This document shows, piece after piece, positions 3,426 to 64,000 of a stretch of DNA of 64,000 nucleotides. The notes beneath the pieces were generated by a model. That model saw only the letters and a list, made by a program, of their open reading frames with translations, was not told the DNA's origin and did no database searches. This DNA is from Escherichia coli (GTDB taxonomy: Bacteria > Pseudomonadota > Gammaproteobacteria > Enterobacterales > Enterobacteriaceae): assembly GCF_016026235.1 (NCBI RefSeq), contig NZ_CP065613.1, one strand, 5' to 3'. The translations under genes were made by a program, and so were the position numbers. Numbering within the stretch: the first letter of the stretch is position 1; each line of letters begins with the position of its first letter.

Positions 3426-6838
<3,413 letters not shown>

Positions 6839-6895
6839 TCACGCTCCATAAACGACAAAACCGCCCGGAGGCGGTTTCACATAAAACGTTTTTCA

Positions 6896-7543
6896 TCAGC
6901 GACCAATCACCACAACCTGACCACCATCCCCTTCGTCTGCCGTGCGGATCTCCTGAGAGACCACCCGCGACCCCACGCGCATTTCACCGTACAGAACGGG
7001 CAGAACATTGCCCTGGGCAACCATGTTATCCAGTGAGGAGAAATAGGTGTTCTGTTTGCCGTTATCTGTACTTGCTGCCGTGGGCGTCCTGGCTTTCGGT
7101 GCCAGCATCTGCGCCACTCCGCCCAGGATCATACTGGCCCCTGCCGCATACATGCCCGATACAGCCGCGGCACCCAGCCAGCCCACAGGGTTCCACCATG
7201 CCACCGCAATCAGCGCCACCCCCAGCACCACCTGAAACACACTGCCACTTTTAGCTCCCGCCAGACGCGGCACGATGTGGATCACGGCACCATTTGCCAG
7301 CGGCTCATTAAGACGGGCAGACAATTCGGTTTCACCTGCATCACGCCCGGCAATGCGTACCTGGTACCAGCCGTCGCTCAGTTTCTGACGAAACGCCGGG
7401 ATCTGCATGGCCAGCGCCCGGATGGCTTCGGACCCCGTTTTCACTCGAAGGTCGATGCGGCGGCCAAATCGTTGTAAATCCCCGTAAAGGCAGATGCGTG
7501 CCATGCCCGGTGACGCCAGAGGGAGTGTGTGCGTCGCTGCCAT
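6896..7543 (-). CDS. I: Tail assembly protein I (lambda gpI-like); true start probably an internal Met
   Basis: Position between K and J; C-terminal hydrophobic segment; the annotated start overlaps K by about 100 bp. Confidence 0.75.
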   Translation of the reverse strand: MAATHTLPLASPGMARICLYGDLQRFGRRIDLRVKTGSEAIRALAMQIPAFRQKLSDGWYQVRIAGRDAGETELSARLNEPLANGAVIHIVPRLAGAKSGSVFQVVLGVALIAVAWWNPVGWLGAAAVSGMYAAGASMILGGVAQMLAPKARTPTAASTDNGKQNTYFSSLDNMVAQGNVLPVLYGEMRVGSRVVSQEIRTADEGDGGQVVVIGR

Positions 7544-8193
7544 TTGTCGGTGTACCTCTCTCGTTTGCTCAGTTGTTCAGGAATATGGTGCAGCAGCTCG
7601 CCGTCACCACAGTAAATGGCGGCATGATTCGGCACCGATGAACCAAAACAGCACAGCAGCACATCGCCCGGCTGCGCCGCTGACAACGGCACCTGATACA
7701 GCCCTGTGGCCTCCAGATTATCCAGATAGAGATTCTGACCGTTACGCCACCAGTCATCCTCGCGATGAAAATCCGGCATCTCAATCCCCGCCAGATGGTA
7801 AGCATCCCGGAACAGCGTGTAACAGTCCGTCACCCCGTGCTCAAAGCGCCGCCCGGAAAGATGTGGCACACAGCGGAACTTGTGAATCGCCCCCCGGCAA
7901 ACCAGCCACCACGGCAAATCACTCTGCACCTGCAGCCGCCGGTCGGTCTCACTCAGCCAGGGCAGACCACCGGGGTGGCTGTGGACCAGCGCCACAATCT
8001 CACCCTGCATCTCTGCCCGCAGCCAGTCCTCCGGCGACATCCGGAAATACTCCTCCGGCTCACCGGAGATATTCACGCAGGGAAAATATCTTTCCCCCTC
8101 CGGTGTTCTCACCACGAAGCCGCACGACTCCGCTGGCGCACATCGCCGGGCGTGCGCCAGAATCGCTGATTCTGTCTCTGTCATGGGATTCAC
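7441..8193 (-). CDS. K: Tail assembly protein K (JAB/MPN + NlpC/P60 domains)
   Basis: HSHPGG JAMM-type motif and downstream Cys/His peptidase region; start overlaps the L stop by 4 bp. Confidence 0.8.
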   Translation of the reverse strand: MNPMTETESAILAHARRCAPAESCGFVVRTPEGERYFPCVNISGEPEEYFRMSPEDWLRAEMQGEIVALVHSHPGGLPWLSETDRRLQVQSDLPWWLVCRGAIHKFRCVPHLSGRRFEHGVTDCYTLFRDAYHLAGIEMPDFHREDDWWRNGQNLYLDNLEATGLYQVPLSAAQPGDVLLCCFGSSVPNHAAIYCGDGELLHHIPEQLSKRERYTDKWQRRTHSLWRHRAWHASAFTGIYNDLAAASTFE

Positions 8194-8888
8194 TGCGAAA
8201 GTTTGTTAATGGAAAGGAAGCCGCCAAAGTTGCCGACGTTATTGCGAAACTTACAGCCGCTCAGGCATTTGCTGCATTTATCCTTCGTGATATCGGAGGT
8301 CGGCTGGTCATATTCATCCGCGACCGCCGGACCGTGATAACCGCACTCATCACCGCGATAGGTCCAGGTGCAGGTATTAGCCAGCATGATGCGCCCCGGA
8401 AAAACAGCGCCGTCCGTTTCCGTCGGCGTGGACAGTACAAAAGAGGCACTCACCGCGCTCAGTTCGCTGCACTGCTCGATGCGCCAGCGGCTGATCACCT
8501 CCTGCTCCGGATCGGCGTCACTGTTTCCGTTGACGAAGTTCACCGCATCCAGAAAACGGGCGTAAACCTTACGCCGGACCACCGTTCCTCCGACCAGACT
8601 CTGCAGGTCTTCCGCCATCCCGGTGACCATGCCGTGCAGGTTAGAAACCGTCAGTGTCGGACGGGCAGCACTGCCTTTGCCGTTCAGTTCAAATCCCGTC
8701 CCCTGAATGGGATACGCCTGATACTGTCGCCTCTGCCAGGTGACCGGCTCACCTTTATCGTTCTGCTCATTACAGAAAAAATAACGCTCACCACCGACCT
8801 CTGTCAGATCGATTTCCCAGAGCTCCACCCGGACTGACTGCTCCGCACGGGTGCATTCATTCAGTGTTTCCTGCCGGATATCCTGCAT
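8190..8888 (-). CDS. L: Minor tail protein L
   Basis: 232 aa, same length and position as lambda gpL; Cys-rich C-terminus. Confidence 0.85.
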   Translation of the reverse strand: MQDIRQETLNECTRAEQSVRVELWEIDLTEVGGERYFFCNEQNDKGEPVTWQRRQYQAYPIQGTGFELNGKGSAARPTLTVSNLHGMVTGMAEDLQSLVGGTVVRRKVYARFLDAVNFVNGNSDADPEQEVISRWRIEQCSELSAVSASFVLSTPTETDGAVFPGRIMLANTCTWTYRGDECGYHGPAVADEYDQPTSDITKDKCSKCLSGCKFRNNVGNFGGFLSINKLSQ

Positions 8889-14093: not shown

Positions 14094-14656
14094 AACCTCA
14101 GTTGTTGTTTCAGTGCATACCCCAGCTGTTTCGGCATTTCCGCAGCAATGATGCGGTCGCGGGCATCTTCAAATGTCTGTGTCAGCGGTCCGGACAGCGG
14201 GATTTTCACCACATCAATGGGGTAACGATTTTTGCCATCAATACGCCGCATCACATGCCAGCGACCATTCGCCAGTTGCTGAATAAACGCATCCCGGAAA
14301 AGATATTTACCCACCTTCAGCACACTGCCACGGTACTGCAGTTTTCCACCACGCCGGGCCAGTCTGACCCGGGCTGTCCCCAGCTTAATGGCAGGCAGAT
14401 TGCCCCGGTTAACGCGGATCCTGGCCGTCATTTTTCCTGACGGACTGGCTTTAAACACCCGGACACGCTGACGTACCAGTTTCAGGGGGATCCCTTTCAC
14501 CTGGTTATCTCCCGCAACGGTATTCCCGGCAACCTGCCGGGTGGCAACCGAGACCGCTTTCTGTGCCACACGGTTTATCGCCCATGCGCTGGCCTGTGGC
14601 ACCATACGGGTATCAAGGCTGTTCAGATTGCGGATGGCATTCTCAAGCCCCTTCAT
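14078..14656 (-). CDS. Z: Minor tail / tail completion protein Z
   Basis: 192 aa; RWHVMRRIDGKNRYPIDVVKIPL and C-terminal KQLGYALKQQLR resemble lambda gpZ. Confidence 0.8.
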   Translation of the reverse strand: MKGLENAIRNLNSLDTRMVPQASAWAINRVAQKAVSVATRQVAGNTVAGDNQVKGIPLKLVRQRVRVFKASPSGKMTARIRVNRGNLPAIKLGTARVRLARRGGKLQYRGSVLKVGKYLFRDAFIQQLANGRWHVMRRIDGKNRYPIDVVKIPLSGPLTQTFEDARDRIIAAEMPKQLGYALKQQLRLWLTR

Positions 14657-14667
14657 CCCACACCTCT

Positions 14668-14943
14668 TTACTCAATAAAGATCATTGGCTTACCGTTAAA
14701 GCGTTCATGCCGTGTGACCGTCCATTGTTGTCCGTCATAAACAACGCGATCACCGCGCCGTGGGCGGTATCCCGAAGAAAACACCACCAGAGAGACCGCA
14801 GGTCCGGACAGAGCATTCAGCTCTGCCAGTGTTTCTCCCGGGATCACAGTCATATCGACATCATTAATCGAGGCTGTCTTTCCCATCTTTCTGACCGTGA
14901 TAGCATCCATACGCGCTGCCAGCCGGGAAAAGGGATCAGACAT
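14668..14943 (-). CDS. Head-tail joining protein (FII-like)
   Basis: 91 aa, positioned between the head module and Z as lambda FII is; call is by position and size. Confidence 0.55.
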   Translation of the reverse strand: MSDPFSRLAARMDAITVRKMGKTASINDVDMTVIPGETLAELNALSGPAVSLVVFSSGYRPRRGDRVVYDGQQWTVTRHERFNGKPMIFIE

Positions 14944-15259
14944 TGAGTTTTACCGGCACTTCTTCTGCACTGGTTCCGGCATCTGCCCAGACAACCCCGA
15001 CCAGCGGATCAGAGCCGCTGTTAGTCAGCTGAATTTTTCCGGACTTCAGATAAACCTTCTTACCCGTTTTCATGTCATCCGTTTTCAGCTTAGGCAGCAT
15101 AAACACACCTTCGGTCATGCCGTCGCCTGTTTCACCCTGTGGAATATCGGTCAGCGCCACCGCAAAAACATCGCCCACCTGCACCAGATCTCCGCTGCTG
15201 ATGGCTGCACTGGCAACAATCGCCACCGTTTTTCCTTCTTCTACAAAATTCTTTGCCAT
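14936..15259 (-). CDS. Small phage head-associated protein (DUF2190-like), probable start MAKNFVEEGK
   Basis: About 107 aa immediately downstream of the capsid gene; tentative family assignment. Confidence 0.45.
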   Translation of the reverse strand: MAKNFVEEGKTVAIVASAAISSGDLVQVGDVFAVALTDIPQGETGDGMTEGVFMLPKLKTDDMKTGKKVYLKSGKIQLTNSGSDPLVGVVWADAGTSAEEVPVKLNV

Positions 15260-15345
15260 AACTGTCTCCGCACAGCCCCGTTCAGGGGCTGATTTCAGGT
15301 ACAAAAAAAGCCCTTACGGGCCATCAGAGATGTTGTCTGCGACGT

Positions 15346-17057
15346 TTACGCCGTACATTTCACCAGACCGCGGTGATCAACTGGCGCGACACCGGCGTCA
15401 ATACGCACTTTCGTTGTCACGCCATCCACACTGAAGCCCTCCATCTGATCAATATATGGCGTATCCACACCGTTGAGATAAGCCACTTCAATCGTATCGG
15501 AGCCTTTTGACGCAGCCAAGTAGAAGGTGGTCTGGCTGTTATCATCAAGACGAGGCTCTGCAATAACGGTCGCAAAATCTTTCACCGGGTTAATAATACC
15601 GGCGTTAATGTCAGCCCCCTTGACACTTGAGGAGCGAATGACCTGGTTAGCAACAGACTCCATCGCCGTCGGTACCAGTACGAACGCAGGACGAATATTC
15701 AGATGACGCTCCCCCTCTTTCTGAACGCGCATCAACTGGCGGGCTTTATCCAGCGATGCCACGTCCATTGCAGCGCTCTCCAGTACGTTTGCATGTTTCG
15801 CTTTATCGAACAGACTTACATTATCTGTGGAGATTTTCGGGTTAGACGTCAGAATGGCATAAACCAGATCGGCAATAGTGGATTTCGCCGCACGGCCCAG
15901 TTTCATCGGGACATCGGTCAGCATATTCAGATCATCATTGATAATGGCCTGACGGGTGATACTGAACAGCTCGCCATAGGTCGCCAGTGCAATAGTGGCC
16001 TGTTTATCTCCGGTGGTGACGTATTTATATTCCGCCCCTTCACGCACCTGACGCAGAGCACTGAAGCCCCCCATACCCACACGATGGGCAATTTTAAAAT
16101 CAGACAACTGACCTTTCCGCGTCCACTGTTCATAGGTTTCAGGGGCATCTTCCCAGCCCTGCAGAATGGCTTTGTTCGCAACATCCAGCAGAATATTACC
16201 GAAGTCAGACGTACTGTGTGTGAACGCCGCACCGACCATCTGCATCGGGTTATAACCGGAAACCCCAATACCCCGTTCAGTCAGTGACATACGGGCATAT
16301 TCACGCAGGGTCATCCCGTTGTAGACATTATCACGTTCGGTTTTTTCAAATCCGGCACGCGCCATCAGCGCCTGGCGGATCCCGTCCCCCACAAAATTAC
16401 CGTTACCGGCATAAATATGAGCCGGGGTATTTTTATTGGATGGCGTGGACTCGCGCCCCATCTCGTTCAACAGCTTTTCACGGGCCTGCTCCAGCGAACA
16501 TTCAGGATCGGCAAGACACTGAGCCTGCAGCGTCTGATAACGCCCGCCAAACATGGCAAACAGATCATTAATACCGTTTACACGCGCTTTTTGCTCTGCC
16601 AGTACCTGCGCACGGATGCTGTTTTCATCCACCACGGGTGCTGCTGCCTGCACTGGCGTCCGGGAGGCTTCAGATTCATTATCCTGTACGCGTGGAGCAC
16701 TGTTGCGTGGCGGAGTAATCATGTTTCGAATGGATTCCGGCATCTTTTTAAATTCCTCTGTACGTTTTGACTGAATACATGCCATTGCCTTAACGGCTGG
16801 CGTTACCTGATCAGCAAATCCATGTGCCAGACATTCGGCACCGGACATCCAGGTCTCATCCGCCAGCATGGCAGCAATTTCATCGGTGGTTTTCCCGGTT
16901 TTCTGTGCATAAGCGGGTAACAGAACCGCCTCAACTTTATCGAGCAGGTCGGCATAGGTGCGCATGTCCTCCGCATCACCGCCCGTAAAGCCAAATGGTT
17001 TATGAATCATCATGAAGGTGTTTTCCGGCATAATGACCGGGTTTCCTACCATCGCAA
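15346..17057 (-). pseudogene. Prohead protease / major capsid protein fusion (HK97-fold), 5' end cut by IS600-like element
   Basis: N-terminal part looks like the C-terminal half of a ClpP-like prohead protease, followed by a capsid-like domain; the frame runs directly into the IS end at 17058. Confidence 0.75.
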
Positions 17058-17100
17058 TGAGGTGTACTGGCAATAGCGGACACTACCATTTGTTCTTTTT

Positions 17101-17919
17101 TTAAGCAGCCATCTGATGATATTTTTCCCTGAAGGCTGCCGGGGAGATATTCCCCAGACGAGAGTGACGACGCTGACGATTGTAGAAAATCTCAATGTAT
17201 TCCCGTATTACTGAGATGGCTTCATCCCGGTTATTAAAACGATAGTGGCTCAGGCTCTCATTTTTCAGCGTTCCCCAGAAGCTTTCCATCGGAGCGTTGT
17301 CGTAACAGTTACCTTTACGCGACATTGATGTTTTCAGACCAAACTGCTCCTGTATGACCCGGTAATCGTATGCGCAGTACTGTGAACCTCGATCAGAGTG
17401 GTGGATTAGCCCGGCAGGTGGGCGCTGGCTCCTGAGCGCCATAAACAGGGCTTTACCTGTCAGCTCTTTTGTCATGCGCTCTCCCATGGCGTAGCCGACA
17501 ATTTCGCACGTATAAACATCTTTGATGCCAGCGAGGTACAACCATCCCTCCTGTGTGGCAACATACGTCAGGTCCGCCACCCAGACCTGATTTGGTGCTG
17601 TAGGAGCGAACGTCTGGTTCAGCAGATTTGGCGCAACTGGCAGATTGTGGTTCGGGTTCGTAGTCGCTCTGAACTTGCGTTTCTGCTTACAGCGTAGCCT
17701 TAGCTCCTTACGAAGACGTGCCAGTCGGTCACGACCAACGATGATGCCATTCTCTGCCAGCTCCGTCTGGAGCCGCCGGGTTCCATATGTTTCGCGAGTG
17801 CGGATATGTGCCACCTTAATCTCCAGTTTTAGCCGCTCATCACTTTGTTTTCTGTCTGAGGGTTCATGCTGTACCCAGTTGTAATAACCGCTCCTGGATA
17901 CACCAAATACCTGACACAT
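17101..17919 (-). CDS. IS3-family transposase OrfB (DDE integrase-like catalytic domain)
   Basis: 272 aa with HSDRGSQY and later E; the -1 frame joins orfA to orfB through an A7 run (about 17995-18005). Confidence 0.9.
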   Translation of the reverse strand: MCQVFGVSRSGYYNWVQHEPSDRKQSDERLKLEIKVAHIRTRETYGTRRLQTELAENGIIVGRDRLARLRKELRLRCKQKRKFRATTNPNHNLPVAPNLLNQTFAPTAPNQVWVADLTYVATQEGWLYLAGIKDVYTCEIVGYAMGERMTKELTGKALFMALRSQRPPAGLIHHSDRGSQYCAYDYRVIQEQFGLKTSMSRKGNCYDNAPMESFWGTLKNESLSHYRFNNRDEAISVIREYIEIFYNRQRRHSRLGNISPAAFREKYHQMAA

Positions 17920-17954
17920 CGCTTCAATGGGAAATTGTTGTCGCCATTGTTCGA

Positions 17955-18257
17955 TTAACGCGTATTTTTCAGCGACTCCTGTGCAAAATACGCTGTTGCT
18001 TTTTTTAATATATCTCGCTCAAGGCGAGCTTCATTTAACGCCTTACGCAGTTGCAGAATTTCAGATTCCAGTTCAGCCACCGTGCGGGAGCCAGGAGTAC
18101 CGAGCCCTTTTCTGGCGGCGGTAACCCATTGTCCTAAAGTGCCTTCAGGAAGGGATAATCGGGAAGCGCCTTCACTGATCGAAAGTTGATTTTCAAGAAC
18201 CGTTCTGACAGCTTCGGCTTTGAACTCTTTAGAGTAACGTTGGGTTTTTCTGCTCAT
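17955..18257 (-). CDS. IS3-family transposase OrfA (helix-turn-helix)
   Basis: 100 aa, MSRKTQRYSKEFKAEAVRTV..., typical IS3-family OrfA. Confidence 0.9.
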   Translation of the reverse strand: MSRKTQRYSKEFKAEAVRTVLENQLSISEGASRLSLPEGTLGQWVTAARKGLGTPGSRTVAELESEILQLRKALNEARLERDILKKATAYFAQESLKNTR

Positions 18258-18321
18258 TATTAGCTCCTTCTGATGCCATTCTATTTCAGGAAGGAGTGTC
18301 CGTTAAACTCAGGCTACCTCA

Positions 18322-18405
18322 GTTTTCCCTGACTCTTACGCCTTTATAAACAAACCAGATACGTAATTTCCCTCCATGGCTTTCCACGCCTGTCGGATAT
18401 TTCAT
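18322..18405 (-). pseudogene. Phage integrase N-terminal remnant (about 27 codons), truncated by IS600-like element
   Basis: Minus-strand translation MKYPTGVESHGGKLRIWFVYKGVRVREN is the characteristic N-terminus of lambdoid tyrosine integrases, directly downstream of xis. Confidence 0.6.
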
Positions 18406-18439
18406 TTCAATTTCTCTCATTAGTTAGTGTGGCTTTTAG

Positions 18440-18691
18440 TCAAGTAAGATGACGTCTTGGTCTTGCTGATGCCTGGCGCTCAATCCAGCGATCAATTTCT
18501 TCCAGGTTGTAAAAGCATGGACTGTTATCCCATGGCATACCGTCATGAGCGACATGCTTATATTCCCTTCCTTCCATAAACGATTTTTCCCGGGCCTTTT
18601 TTAACGTACCTTTTTTTATTCCTTTCAGCGCAATTAACTGCTCTTCGGATACCCATTTGCCGGGAGAGACAATCATGATTACTTCGCTCAT
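18440..18691 (-). CDS. Putative excisionase-like protein
   Basis: 83 aa, immediately upstream of the int remnant on the same strand; assignment mainly by position. Confidence 0.5.
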   Translation of the reverse strand: MSEVIMIVSPGKWVSEEQLIALKGIKKGTLKKAREKSFMEGREYKHVAHDGMPWDNSPCFYNLEEIDRWIERQASARPRRHLT

Positions 18692-18775
18692 CGATTTCTT
18701 TATCTCTTACATCAGACGAGCGCCGGTTGCAGAATACCAGTCACAACCGGCGACAGTTGAACATTAAGAATCAGC

Positions 18776-18904
18776 CTGACTCGGGATCAGTTTTTGCCAG
18801 ATAACTGAAACGTATTTTGCCTGGTAACGGGCGTCATCAAGTGCATTATGGCGCTCACCTTCGAATGGAATAGCCGTTCTGGCATCGAAGTCTATGGCTT
18901 TCCC
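18776..18904 (-). pseudogene. C-terminal fragment of a DnaQ-like (DEDDh) 3'-5' exonuclease, 5' part removed by IS10-like insertion
   Basis: Translation ...FEGERHNALDDARYQAKYVSVIWQKL contains the H-x-A-L-D-D-A exo III motif; the frame runs into the IS end at 18905. Confidence 0.45.
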
Positions 18905-20198
18905 CTGAGGAATCCCCAGAAAACAAGACAGGCATAGTGAGATGTGATCTAATTGATTGTGCTAACAATTTCAAGGAGATCACCACTATGCCTGCACGTT
19001 CATTATGCCAAAATTTCCTTAACAACATACTGGCCCCTTTGCATCTTTACCGTCAAAAATCACTGATTGACGCAACTAATGCTGTAATAAATGGCGCTTC
19101 CCTCACACTTACCAGTATCGGGCGTCATTTAACCGGTACGGCATCAGTTAAAAACAAAATAAAGCGGGTGGATCGACTGTTGGGGAATCGACATTTGCAA
19201 AATGAGGTTTCCACCATTTTTCAGCGAATTACCCAAAAGATTACGCGGGGAATGTCTCGTGTTGTGATACTCATTGACTGGAGTGCTTATCATGCCTCTC
19301 GTTTTCAGCTTTTGCGGGCAAGCCTGGCATGTGACGGGCGTTCTTTACCGTTGATGAGTTGTGTCGTTCCATCATCACAGACAGCGAATGCAGATGTACA
19401 TGAGCGTTTTCTGGAATCGCTTGCTGAGTGCTTTTCCCCCGGGACTGATGTCATTGTTATTACAGATGCCGGTTTTCAGGGGCGATGGTTCCAACAGCTC
19501 CGCTCCCGTGGCTGGACCTATATTTGCCGGGTACTGGGCAATCATTATTACAATGTTGGTAATGGCTGGGAAAAGGTGTCGGACTCAGGCACAAAAGCAT
19601 CAACGACAGCAATTTATTTAGGTGAAGGCCTGCTGGGTCGAGATAAAAATGCACAACATGAAGGGCATTTTTATCTTTATAAAAGTAAGCCTAAAGGTCG
19701 TAGATTTAAACGCTCGAAGGAAAGAGCAACCAGACCATCGGTGACGGCTAAAGCTCGTACTGCCGGGAAATCACCATGGTTTATTTTCACAAACAGTACT
19801 GAGTTCTCGCCAAAACAGGTAATGAAATTATACAGCCGTAGAATGCAAATTGAGCAAAATTTCAGGGATGAAAAAAATCCTCGCTGGGGATTTGGACTAC
19901 GGTTTGGTGCCAGTCATTCATCCGGGCGGGTCACGGTATTGAGTCTGATCGCAACATTAGCCAGTATCATTATGTGGTTAAGCGGTTTCAGCCTGGAAAA
20001 CAAAGGGATACATCATAAATATCAGGCAAATACAGTGAAGCACAGGCGAGTCATCTCGTTATTAAAACTGGCGGAGAATGTGATTCGACATTCTCCACTC
20101 ATACTAAACACACTGTCACTTGACGCAGGGCTGAAAGTTCTACAGCAACGGTATACCAATATGATAATGGTTTACTAAATTTTCTGGGGATCCCTCAG
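18905..20198 (+). mobile_element. IS4-family insertion sequence, IS10-like, copy 1 (1294 bp)
   Basis: Terminal inverted repeats CTGAGGAATCCCCAGAAAA (left) and CTGAGGGATCCCCAGAAAA (right, reverse complement), resembling IS10 ends; single transposase ORF; no 9-bp direct repeat in the flanks. Confidence 0.85.
18988..20178 (+). CDS. IS4-family (IS10-like) DDE transposase
   Basis: ATG at 18988 preceded by AAGGAG; motifs KRVDRLLGNRHL, ILIDWS, VITDAGF and YSRRMQIEQNFRD align with the IS10 transposase DDE residues. Confidence 0.85.
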   Translation: MPARSLCQNFLNNILAPLHLYRQKSLIDATNAVINGASLTLTSIGRHLTGTASVKNKIKRVDRLLGNRHLQNEVSTIFQRITQKITRGMSRVVILIDWSAYHASRFQLLRASLACDGRSLPLMSCVVPSSQTANADVHERFLESLAECFSPGTDVIVITDAGFQGRWFQQLRSRGWTYICRVLGNHYYNVGNGWEKVSDSGTKASTTAIYLGEGLLGRDKNAQHEGHFYLYKSKPKGRRFKRSKERATRPSVTAKARTAGKSPWFIFTNSTEFSPKQVMKLYSRRMQIEQNFRDEKNPRWGFGLRFGASHSSGRVTVLSLIATLASIIMWLSGFSLENKGIHHKYQANTVKHRRVISLLKLAENVIRHSPLILNTLSLDAGLKVLQQRYTNMIMVY

Positions 20199-20824
20199 CA
20201 GTCAGCCCCGCTCTCTTTCGCTTTTTCCAGTCGTTCATCAATGCGATCGGCAACAATCACATTTTTAACGTTATAGACGCCTTTTAATACCTGAACGATC
20301 GTCAGGCCGATTGGACCGGCACCGTAAACCAGAACGGTATCATTTTCAGTCGGTTGACCATGGCCGGTTACGTTAGCCGCAATGGTAAAAGGTTCGATCA
20401 TCACCGCATATTGATCGGCCACTGCTTCAGGAATTTTCCACGCATTTTTTGCCGGAACCACGGCATATTCACTGAAACCACCGTCAGCGTGCACACCTAA
20501 TACAGCCAGTGTCGTACAAACGTTCGGTTTACCTATAGAGCACGGATAGCAATGCCCACAGCTGACCACCGGATCGACAGCAACACGTTCACCGACTCTG
20601 GCGCTTTCCACACCTTCACCCACCGCATCAATGACGCCAAAGAATTCATGTCCAATGACGCGCGGATATTTCGCAAAAGGATTATGCCCACGATAAATAT
20701 GGCTATCTGAACCACAAATTCCGGCAAGTTTCACTTTTACTCGTACTTCACCCGCTGACGGGGTGGGTATTTCACGTTCGACAATCGCCAGTTGATTCGG
20801 TTTTTCAATTAATATGCTTTTCAT
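20199..20824 (-). pseudogene. rspB: Starvation-sensing zinc-type dehydrogenase RspB, 3'-truncated by IS10-like element
   Basis: N-terminus MKSILIEKPNQLAIVEREIPTPSAGEVRVKV... matches RspB; reading frame ends in a TGA supplied by the IS terminus after about 208 of roughly 339 residues. Confidence 0.85.
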
Positions 20825-59616: not shown

Positions 59617-63100
<3,484 letters not shown>

Positions 63101-64000
63101 CTGAGGGATCCCCAGAAAATTTAGTAAACCATTATCATATTGGTATACCGTTGCTGTAGAACTTTCAGCCCTGCGTCAAGTGACAGTGTGTTTAGTATGA
63201 GTGGAGAATGTCGAATCACATTCTCCGCCAGTTTTAATAACGAGATGACTCGCCTGTGCTTCACTGTATTTGCCTGATATTTATGATGTATCCCTTTGTT
63301 TTCCAGGCTGAAACCGCTTAACCACATAATGATACTGGCTAATGTTGCGATCAGACTCAATACCGTGACCCGCCCGGATGAATGACTGGCACCAAACCGT
63401 AGTCCAAATCCCCAGCGAGGATTTTTTTCATCCCTGAAATTTTGCTCAATTTGCATTCTACGGCTGTATAATTTCATTACCTGTTTTGGCGAGAACTCAG
63501 TACTGTTTGTGAAAATAAACCATGGTGATTTCCCGGCAGTACGAGCTTTAGCCGTCACCGATGGTCTGGTTGCTCTTTCCTTCGAGCGTTTAAATCTACG
63601 ACCTTTAGGCTTACTTTTATAAAGATAAAAATGCCCTTCATGTTGTGCATTTTTATCTCGACCCAGCAGGCCTTCACCTAAATAAATTGCTGTCGTTGAT
63701 GCTTTTGTGCCTGAGTCCGACACCTTTTCCCAGCCATTACCAACATTGTAATAATGATTGCCCAGTACCCGGCAAATATAGGTCCAGCCACGGGAGCGGA
63801 GCTGTTGGAACCATCGCCCCTGAAAACCGGCATCTGTAATAACAATGACATCAGTCCCGGGGGAAAAGCACTCAGCAAGCGATTCCAGAAAACGCTCATG
63901 TACATCTGCATTCGCTGTCTGTGATGATGGAACGACACAACTCATCAACGGTAAAGAACGCCCGTCACATGCCAGGCTTGCCCGCAAAAGCTGAAAACGA
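63101..64000 (-). mobile_element. IS4-family IS10-like element, copy 2 (partial, runs off the window), inverted relative to copy 1
   Basis: Terminus CTGAGGGATCCCCAGAAAATTTAGTAAACC and about 880 bp identical to the reverse complement of copy 1. Confidence 0.85.
63121..64000 (-). CDS. IS10-like DDE transposase, partial (N-terminus beyond window end)
   Basis: The 288 aa within the window are identical to the C-terminal 288 aa of the copy 1 transposase. Confidence 0.85.
   Translation of the reverse strand, partial: RFQLLRASLACDGRSLPLMSCVVPSSQTANADVHERFLESLAECFSPGTDVIVITDAGFQGRWFQQLRSRGWTYICRVLGNHYYNVGNGWEKVSDSGTKASTTAIYLGEGLLGRDKNAQHEGHFYLYKSKPKGRRFKRSKERATRPSVTAKARTAGKSPWFIFTNSTEFSPKQVMKLYSRRMQIEQNFRDEKNPRWGFGLRFGASHSSGRVTVLSLIATLASIIMWLSGFSLENKGIHHKYQANTVKHRRVISLLKLAENVIRHSPLILNTLSLDAGLKVLQQRYTNMIMVY

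Follow-up and report, generated by a model that had tools for sequence, protein, structure and literature searches.

The remnant of a Qin-type prophage exonuclease gene beside an ISEc60 element in Escherichia coli

In a stretch of 64,000 nucleotides of Escherichia coli DNA, referred to here as the window, an intact prophage excisionase gene lies next to a short open frame that ends at an insertion sequence (IS). A preliminary description read this frame as 46 codons from the C-terminal end of a DnaQ-like exonuclease gene, cut by an IS10-like element. The locus raises the questions of which gene these codons belonged to, whether they retain any function, and by what route the remainder of the gene was lost. 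We give a probability of about 0.92 to the reading that the 46 codons are the tail of an 823-codon gene of a Qin-type prophage, encoding a DEDDh nuclease of the Rv2179c/T4 DexA type, and were left behind by three IS-driven steps. The features of the window on which the argument depends are the following.

15346..17057, minus strand: Clp-protease/major-capsid fusion gene of the same prophage, 5' end cut by IS600 (PF00574 and PF25209)
17058..18321, minus strand: IS600-type element of the IS3 family, 1264 bp (NCBIfam transpos_IS3; flanks and SNPs)
18322..18405, minus strand: 5' remnant of the prophage integrase gene (int), 28 codons, cut by IS600 (match to E. coli C; comparison with ATM460)
18440..18691, minus strand: excisionase gene xis, an intact orphan of 83 aa, DUF1233 (PF06806, E 1.6e-31; 83/83 residues identical to xis of E. 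coli C)
18764..18904, minus strand: 3' remnant of the prophage exonuclease gene, codons 778-823 and the TAA stop, with only the Exo III motif (H796, D801)
18905..20198, plus strand: ISEc60-family IS4-like element, IS10-related (inverted repeats, PGAP name, Pfam/NCBIfam); the left end may lie one C earlier, at 18904
18988-20178, plus strand: ISEc60 transposase gene (DDE_Tnp_1, transpos_IS4_2)
20199..20824, minus strand: codons 1-208 of chromosomal rspB (5' part), where the right end of ISEc60 breaks the gene
63101..64000, minus strand (inverted): second ISEc60 copy, running off the end of the window and starting 302 bp upstream of the uidA start

The 46 codons at 18767-18904 of the minus strand translate to GKAIDFDARTAIPFEGERHNALDDARYQAKYVSVIWQKLIPSQADS and are followed by a TAA stop at 18764-18766. 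The preliminary description had counted the codons correctly; its start at 18776 fell 9 nt short of the last codon (18767). It had also stated that the frame runs directly into the IS terminus, and the frame is indeed open for 19 further codons inside the element, until a TAG at 18962-18964. The resulting open frame of 65 codons contains no ATG, GTG or TTG. All 46 residues of the tail recur at positions 778-823 of a prophage "exonuclease" of 823 aa (46/46 identical; tblastn, E 2.5e-23). At the DNA level, 18322-18905 shares 99.7-100% identity with the stretch of the E. coli C prophage that holds int, xis and the exonuclease gene; the gene order there is rspA, rspB, int, xis and the 823-codon "exonuclease". 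Since both DNA and protein are identical or nearly so to an intact gene, the tail is no chance open reading frame. The native exonuclease gene also has a C at 18904-18905, and the breakpoint between exonuclease gene and IS is therefore uncertain by 1-2 nt. Between ISEc60 and IS600 there remains an island of 583 bp, which holds 28 int codons, intact xis and the exonuclease tail.

An intact homologue in related prophages, proposed earlier as a check, was found both in E. coli C and in Escherichia phage PhiR42_1 (from ECOR13). The 823-aa parent gene lies at 6335-8806 of the E. coli C locus (L001) and at 14150-16621 of a second locus (L005), and it is present intact in 17 phage records, PhiR42_1 among them. 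The E. coli C and PhiR42_1 exonucleases are 99.9% identical as proteins, and the PhiR42_1 order is likewise ydfD, exo, xis, int. A query made of xis plus the tail had DNA matches in 4093 of 5426 complete E. coli genomes, with at least 80% of the query matched in 2562. The 46-codon tail is a piece, no longer functional, of an early gene from a lambdoid prophage of the Qin type that integrated beside rspB.

The assignment to a nuclease family comes from the tail itself as well as from its parent. The tail alone passes the Pfam threshold for PF16473 (37.4 bits, cutoff 27; positions 143-177 of the 177 in the profile), so that the homology search with the 46-aa fragment, which could have shown no resemblance to DEDDh exonucleases, found it. 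The Exo III motif of a DEDDh exonuclease, given earlier as HNALDDA, is present: its H-x4-D pattern is kept in the tail as HNALDD, that is, H796 and D801. These two columns are invariant in an alignment of the parent, Sb30 of Salmonella phage ST64B and DexA of phage T4 (HDCAKD), and the tail residues align with H186 and D191 of T4 DexA, which are catalytic residues (PMC12153337). In the full-length parent, residues 642-813 match PF16473, the Rv2179c-like 3'-5' exoribonuclease domain, with an E of 2.4e-67, and the match to PF00929 (RNase_T/DnaQ) is below threshold (21.5 bits against 24). The Exo I residues D646 and E648 (MIDLETMG) and the Exo II residue D746 (GANFDN) of the parent align with D7, E9 and D119 of DexA.

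In searches of PDB sequences the sole match was DexA, a 227-aa exodeoxyribonuclease (8KEL); no RecE structure was matched. DexA taken from the T4 genome is likewise 227 aa and matches PF16473. DexA and the parent domain thus share the family match and the aligned catalytic D, E, D, H and D, but they are only 28% identical, and the parent carries about 640 additional N-terminal residues, whereas the window holds just the last 46 residues of the parent. EcD, the protein tested in PMC12153337, is a short homologue with Ala at the position of D90, where the parent has Asp. Sb30 of ST64B is closer, being 58% identical to the parent nuclease domain and also encoded upstream of xis and int, but it is a stand-alone protein of 189 aa without the RecE-like extension. 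DLP12 exoD of K-12, considered as a candidate homologue, was dropped, as it showed no tblastn similarity at E 1e-3.

Exo I (D-x-E) and Exo II (D) lie upstream of codon 778 in the parent and are absent from the window. The tail thus retains two of the five catalytic residues and lacks the other three; it is a remnant of a PF16473 DEDDh family member, not a functional member. The loss of D646, E648 and D746, together with a frame devoid of ATG, GTG and TTG, leads to the conclusion that the tail is dead: judged from its sequence, it appears to be an inert remnant, unable to make an active enzyme, and it is presumably not expressed. One could suppose instead that the tail, or the island of xis and tail, has been kept since it is expressed and useful, for example if outward transcription from the end of the IS yielded a transcript or a peptide. 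The pOUT promoter of IS10 is an example of such outward transcription, the frame is open across the exonuclease/IS junction, and xis is intact. Yet the frame offers no canonical start codon, a promoter and terminator scan of 18300-19100 gave no promoter-like or terminator site, an Rfam scan of 17000-20500 at E values up to 1 gave no family and no RNA-OUT-like match, and most of the catalytic residues are gone; the island is, moreover, only 583 bp long, has an IS on each side and belongs to a prophage that is heavily decayed through IS elements. Retention for a function is very improbable.

The parent gene is not the small DnaQ-like exonuclease that the tail might suggest. The DEDDh domain stands, but it is joined in an 823-codon gene to a RecE-like middle part. 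Over residues 262-627 the parent shares 39% identity with residues 278-592 of RecE (exonuclease VIII) of the Rac prophage (E 2e-61), and the NCBIfam RecE model covers only this middle part of the parent, at 282 bits against a cutoff of 1269. RecE has a PF06630 domain at 2-178 and a PDDEXK nuclease at 615-850; neither PF06630 nor PF12684 was matched in the parent, and the similarity to RecE ends at RecE residue 592, where the parent has its DEDDh domain instead. The N-terminal part of the parent is labelled YdfE_N and YdfE_C in precomputed Pfam matches. These domain matches show the parent to be a natural domain swap, in which a DexA/Rv2179c-type DEDDh 3'-5' nuclease takes the place of the PD-(D/E)XK 5'-3' nuclease of RecE. 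Many records name it "exodeoxyribonuclease VIII", a name that is misleading as to its catalytic domain. Short bacterial DexA homologues have recently been reported to be anti-phage nucleases, termed HREX (PMC12153337), and the intact parent might act as a prophage-borne anti-phage nuclease of this kind, a suggestion that we regard as unlikely. A limited literature search found no test of the long 823-aa form. If the suggestion were true, the independent IS-caused losses of the parent in K-12 (IS2) and in the enteroinvasive E. coli (EIEC) lineage (ISEc60 and IS600) would be the loss of a defence gene.

The element that adjoins the tail had been called IS10-like. It has inverted repeats, CTGAGGAATCCCCAGAAAA at 18905-18923 and CTGAGGGATCCCCAGAAAA at 20180-20198, which match at 18 of 19 positions, where shuffled sequences are expected to give 0 matches. 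Copies that are 99.5-100% identical to the window element carry the PGAP label "IS4-like element ISEc60 family". Its transposase matches PF01609 (DDE_Tnp_1, E 1.8e-20) and NF033591 (transpos_IS4_2, 360 bits against a cutoff of 152). IS10 of Tn10 and ISEc60 share an IS4-family DDE transposase, a length of about 1.3 kb and a target duplication of 9-10 bp, and the ends of ISEc60, CTGAG..ATCCCC, presumably resemble those of IS10. They differ in that their transposases are just 36% identical (IS10A/ISVsa5, over 93% of the length) and in that ISEc60 measures 1294-1295 bp, against 1329 bp for IS10. The label could be refined to ISEc60; "IS10-like" is a fair term for the element and "IS10" itself is not.

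The exact length of ISEc60 depends on one base. An apparent 10-nt duplication is seen at three independent ISEc60 insertions, in rspB, in the exonuclease gene and at the ibs locus of strain CFSAN029787, and all three duplications end in CCC (TGGCTTTCCC, CAGTCAGCCC and GGGTTTCCCC). In all ISEc60 copies examined a C precedes CTGAGG at the transposase-proximal end (window 18904-18905; L005 10627-11920; L023 4011-5304 and 5643-6936). IS10 typically makes a 9-bp target duplication. Either ISEc60 has 1294 bp with a 10-bp duplication, or it has 1295 bp, from 18904, with a 9-bp duplication, or the C reflects a target preference. The 37-nt left end of the IS had no match in a scan of species-representative genome contigs, and a literature search yielded just two passing mentions of ISEc60. 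On the chromosome of CFSAN029787, an EIEC strain, two ISEc60 copies lie side by side with identical flanks between yegL and mdtA (L023 4000-7020), each of them adjoining an Ibs type I toxin gene. The pair looks like the outcome of insertion into repeated ibs/sib units or of duplication of an IS-bearing unit.

The simplest account of the junction would be that the IS landed in the exonuclease gene, with the rest of the gene to be found across the same element, as the precise abutment of frame and IS terminus would suggest. This is refuted by what lies across the IS, namely rspB codons 1-208, in a relative orientation opposite to that in E. coli C, and by the arrangement in strain ATM460 described below. 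The flanks of the element differ (GGCTTTCCC as against CAGTCAGCC), and there is no other piece of the exonuclease gene within the window. We give simple insertion practically no weight. The cut made by the IS10-like element, as it had been described, is real; a plain insertion it is not, since the cut is the endpoint of an IS-bounded inversion. The rspB gene is itself inactivated at 20195-20824, where codons 1-208 of 339 are left and a C* tail is contributed by the end of the IS. This truncated product of 209 aa recurs in 31 blocks of a public assembly collection, and the insertion in rspB is therefore widespread in the lineage.

Related arrangements were found in public assemblies by looking up proteins that are encoded only by particular junctions, and three states, A, B and C, can be distinguished. 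Neither junction was found in any complete E. coli RefSeq genome (0 of 5426 cover at least 80% of 18440-20700). State A is represented by L005 (GCA_901482675.2), in which ISEc60 lies in rspB as a simple insertion with a direct duplication, its site and orientation matching those of the rspB copy in the window; nothing interrupts int (426 aa), xis or the gene for the 823-aa exonuclease. For state B, a fusion protein of 799 aa, composed of exonuclease residues 1-780 and TEGSPENLVNHYHIGIPLL read from the other (right) end of the IS, was predicted first and then found exactly, on record in two assemblies, that of ATM460 (L011) and L012. A partner protein with exonuclease 1-780 followed by LRDPQKI, from an offset of 9 nt from CTGAGG, was not on record; the version with the 10-nt offset is. 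ATM460 is an enteroinvasive E. coli strain of serotype O143:H26 (PMC8354535). Its order is exonuclease 5' part, ISEc60, rspB 3' part, attL, int 3' part, IS600, int 5' part, xis, exonuclease 3' part, ISEc60, and the target sequence TGGCTTTCCC occurs at both exonuclease junctions. This order and the repeated target show that a 2.37-kb inversion, bounded by two oppositely oriented ISEc60 copies, broke the exonuclease gene in two. The window itself represents state C and shares 100% identity with GCA_900449985.1 over 20,630 nt.

A history of three steps accounts for these states. In the first, ISEc60 inserted into rspB. In the second, another copy in inverted orientation appeared in the exonuclease gene at codon 777/778, and the 2.37-kb segment between the copies, containing the rspB 3' end, attL, int, xis and the exonuclease 3' end, was inverted, which put the exonuclease tail against the ISEc60 copy that adjoins rspB. 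Most likely a fresh copy inserted first and homologous recombination followed, a route preferred here since cut-and-paste is how elements of the IS10 type transpose.

The inversion and the second copy could also have arisen at once, if the ISEc60 in rspB attacked the exonuclease gene on the same molecule, by transposition of a replicative type or between sister chromatids. State A shows that the donor in rspB is older than the inversion, the two copies that bound the inversion in ATM460 are identical, and a target duplication at both exonuclease junctions is predicted by this model too. Against it, IS10-type elements are known to move non-replicatively, and other ISEc60 copies in the genome are possible donors for a separate insertion. 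From the sequences one cannot tell the one-step and two-step origins apart, as they would predict identical junctions; we consider the single step unlikely, though credible. Insertion followed by recombination remains the route adopted here.

The third step of the preferred history concerns the element at 17058-18321, which we take to be IS600 from its OrfA sequence. The preliminary description held that the early region of the prophage had been cut a second time by the IS10-like element, and this is borne out: the first cut is that of IS600, which interrupts int after codon 28. In ATM460 one IS600 is simply inserted in int, with GTT duplicated, and a second IS600, with a CAA duplication, lies in the capsid-protease gene, in direct orientation to the int copy and 27,035 bp from it. 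The window IS600 has the capsid-side flank of one ATM460 copy and the int-side flank of the other, and because it combines the two, recombination between IS600 copies must have deleted 27 kb. The window element carries the bases of the int copy at both distinguishing SNPs, element positions 1033 and 1187, which places the crossover before position 1033 (window 17058-18321; L013 3962-5225; L011 11426-12689). In this step IS600 entered int and the capsid-protease gene and the copies recombined; its entry into int may have come before or after the inversion. The deletion removed the 5' 777 codons of the exonuclease gene along with the partner ISEc60, the rspB 3' end, attL and most of int, as well as all regulatory, lysis and packaging genes and the immunity and replication genes. 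States A, B and C were seen in different isolates; as a series they are plausible, but they do not establish a pedigree.

In K-12 the parent gene was lost by a different route. The ydfE pseudogene (b1577) of the Qin cryptic prophage is what that strain has left of it: ydfE occupies the identical chromosomal position beside rspB, was likewise destroyed by an IS, and corresponds, with 100% identity, to codons 1-256 for the 823-aa protein. In K-12, however, the 5' end is kept and is cut by an IS2E remnant, and xis and int codons 1-30 are lost, whereas in the window exonuclease codons 778-823 survive, together with xis and int codons 1-28. The two remnants, K-12 ydfE, IS2E and intQ with int from codon 31 on (L021 6079-8709) and the window segment 18322-18904, are nearly complementary. 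In K-12 the parent gene was destroyed independently, by IS2.

The exonuclease tail is an instance of ordinary gene decay, a pseudogene tail in an IS-dismantled prophage of an enteroinvasive E. coli lineage, and as such is known biology with little importance beyond annotation. An annotation should enter the segment as a pseudogene remnant (ydfE-family exonuclease, C-terminal fragment), with ISEc60 and IS600 on its two sides. The tail itself holds nothing novel; the only by-product of mild interest is the join of RecE-like and DexA-like parts in its parent. The locus does provide a clean, fully resolved case of prophage dismantling by IS expansion in enteroinvasive E. coli and Shigella-like lineages, by a route of insertion, IS x IS inversion and IS x IS deletion of which each intermediate is still present in public genomes.

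The second ISEc60 copy of the window, at 63101..64000, is not the partner of the inversion. Near it, uidA (603 aa) and uidC look intact, and uidB, on the minus strand with its start codon at 60988-60990, has a premature stop at codon 7 (60970-60972, MNQQLS*), a codon that we take to be Trp in the K-12 protein.
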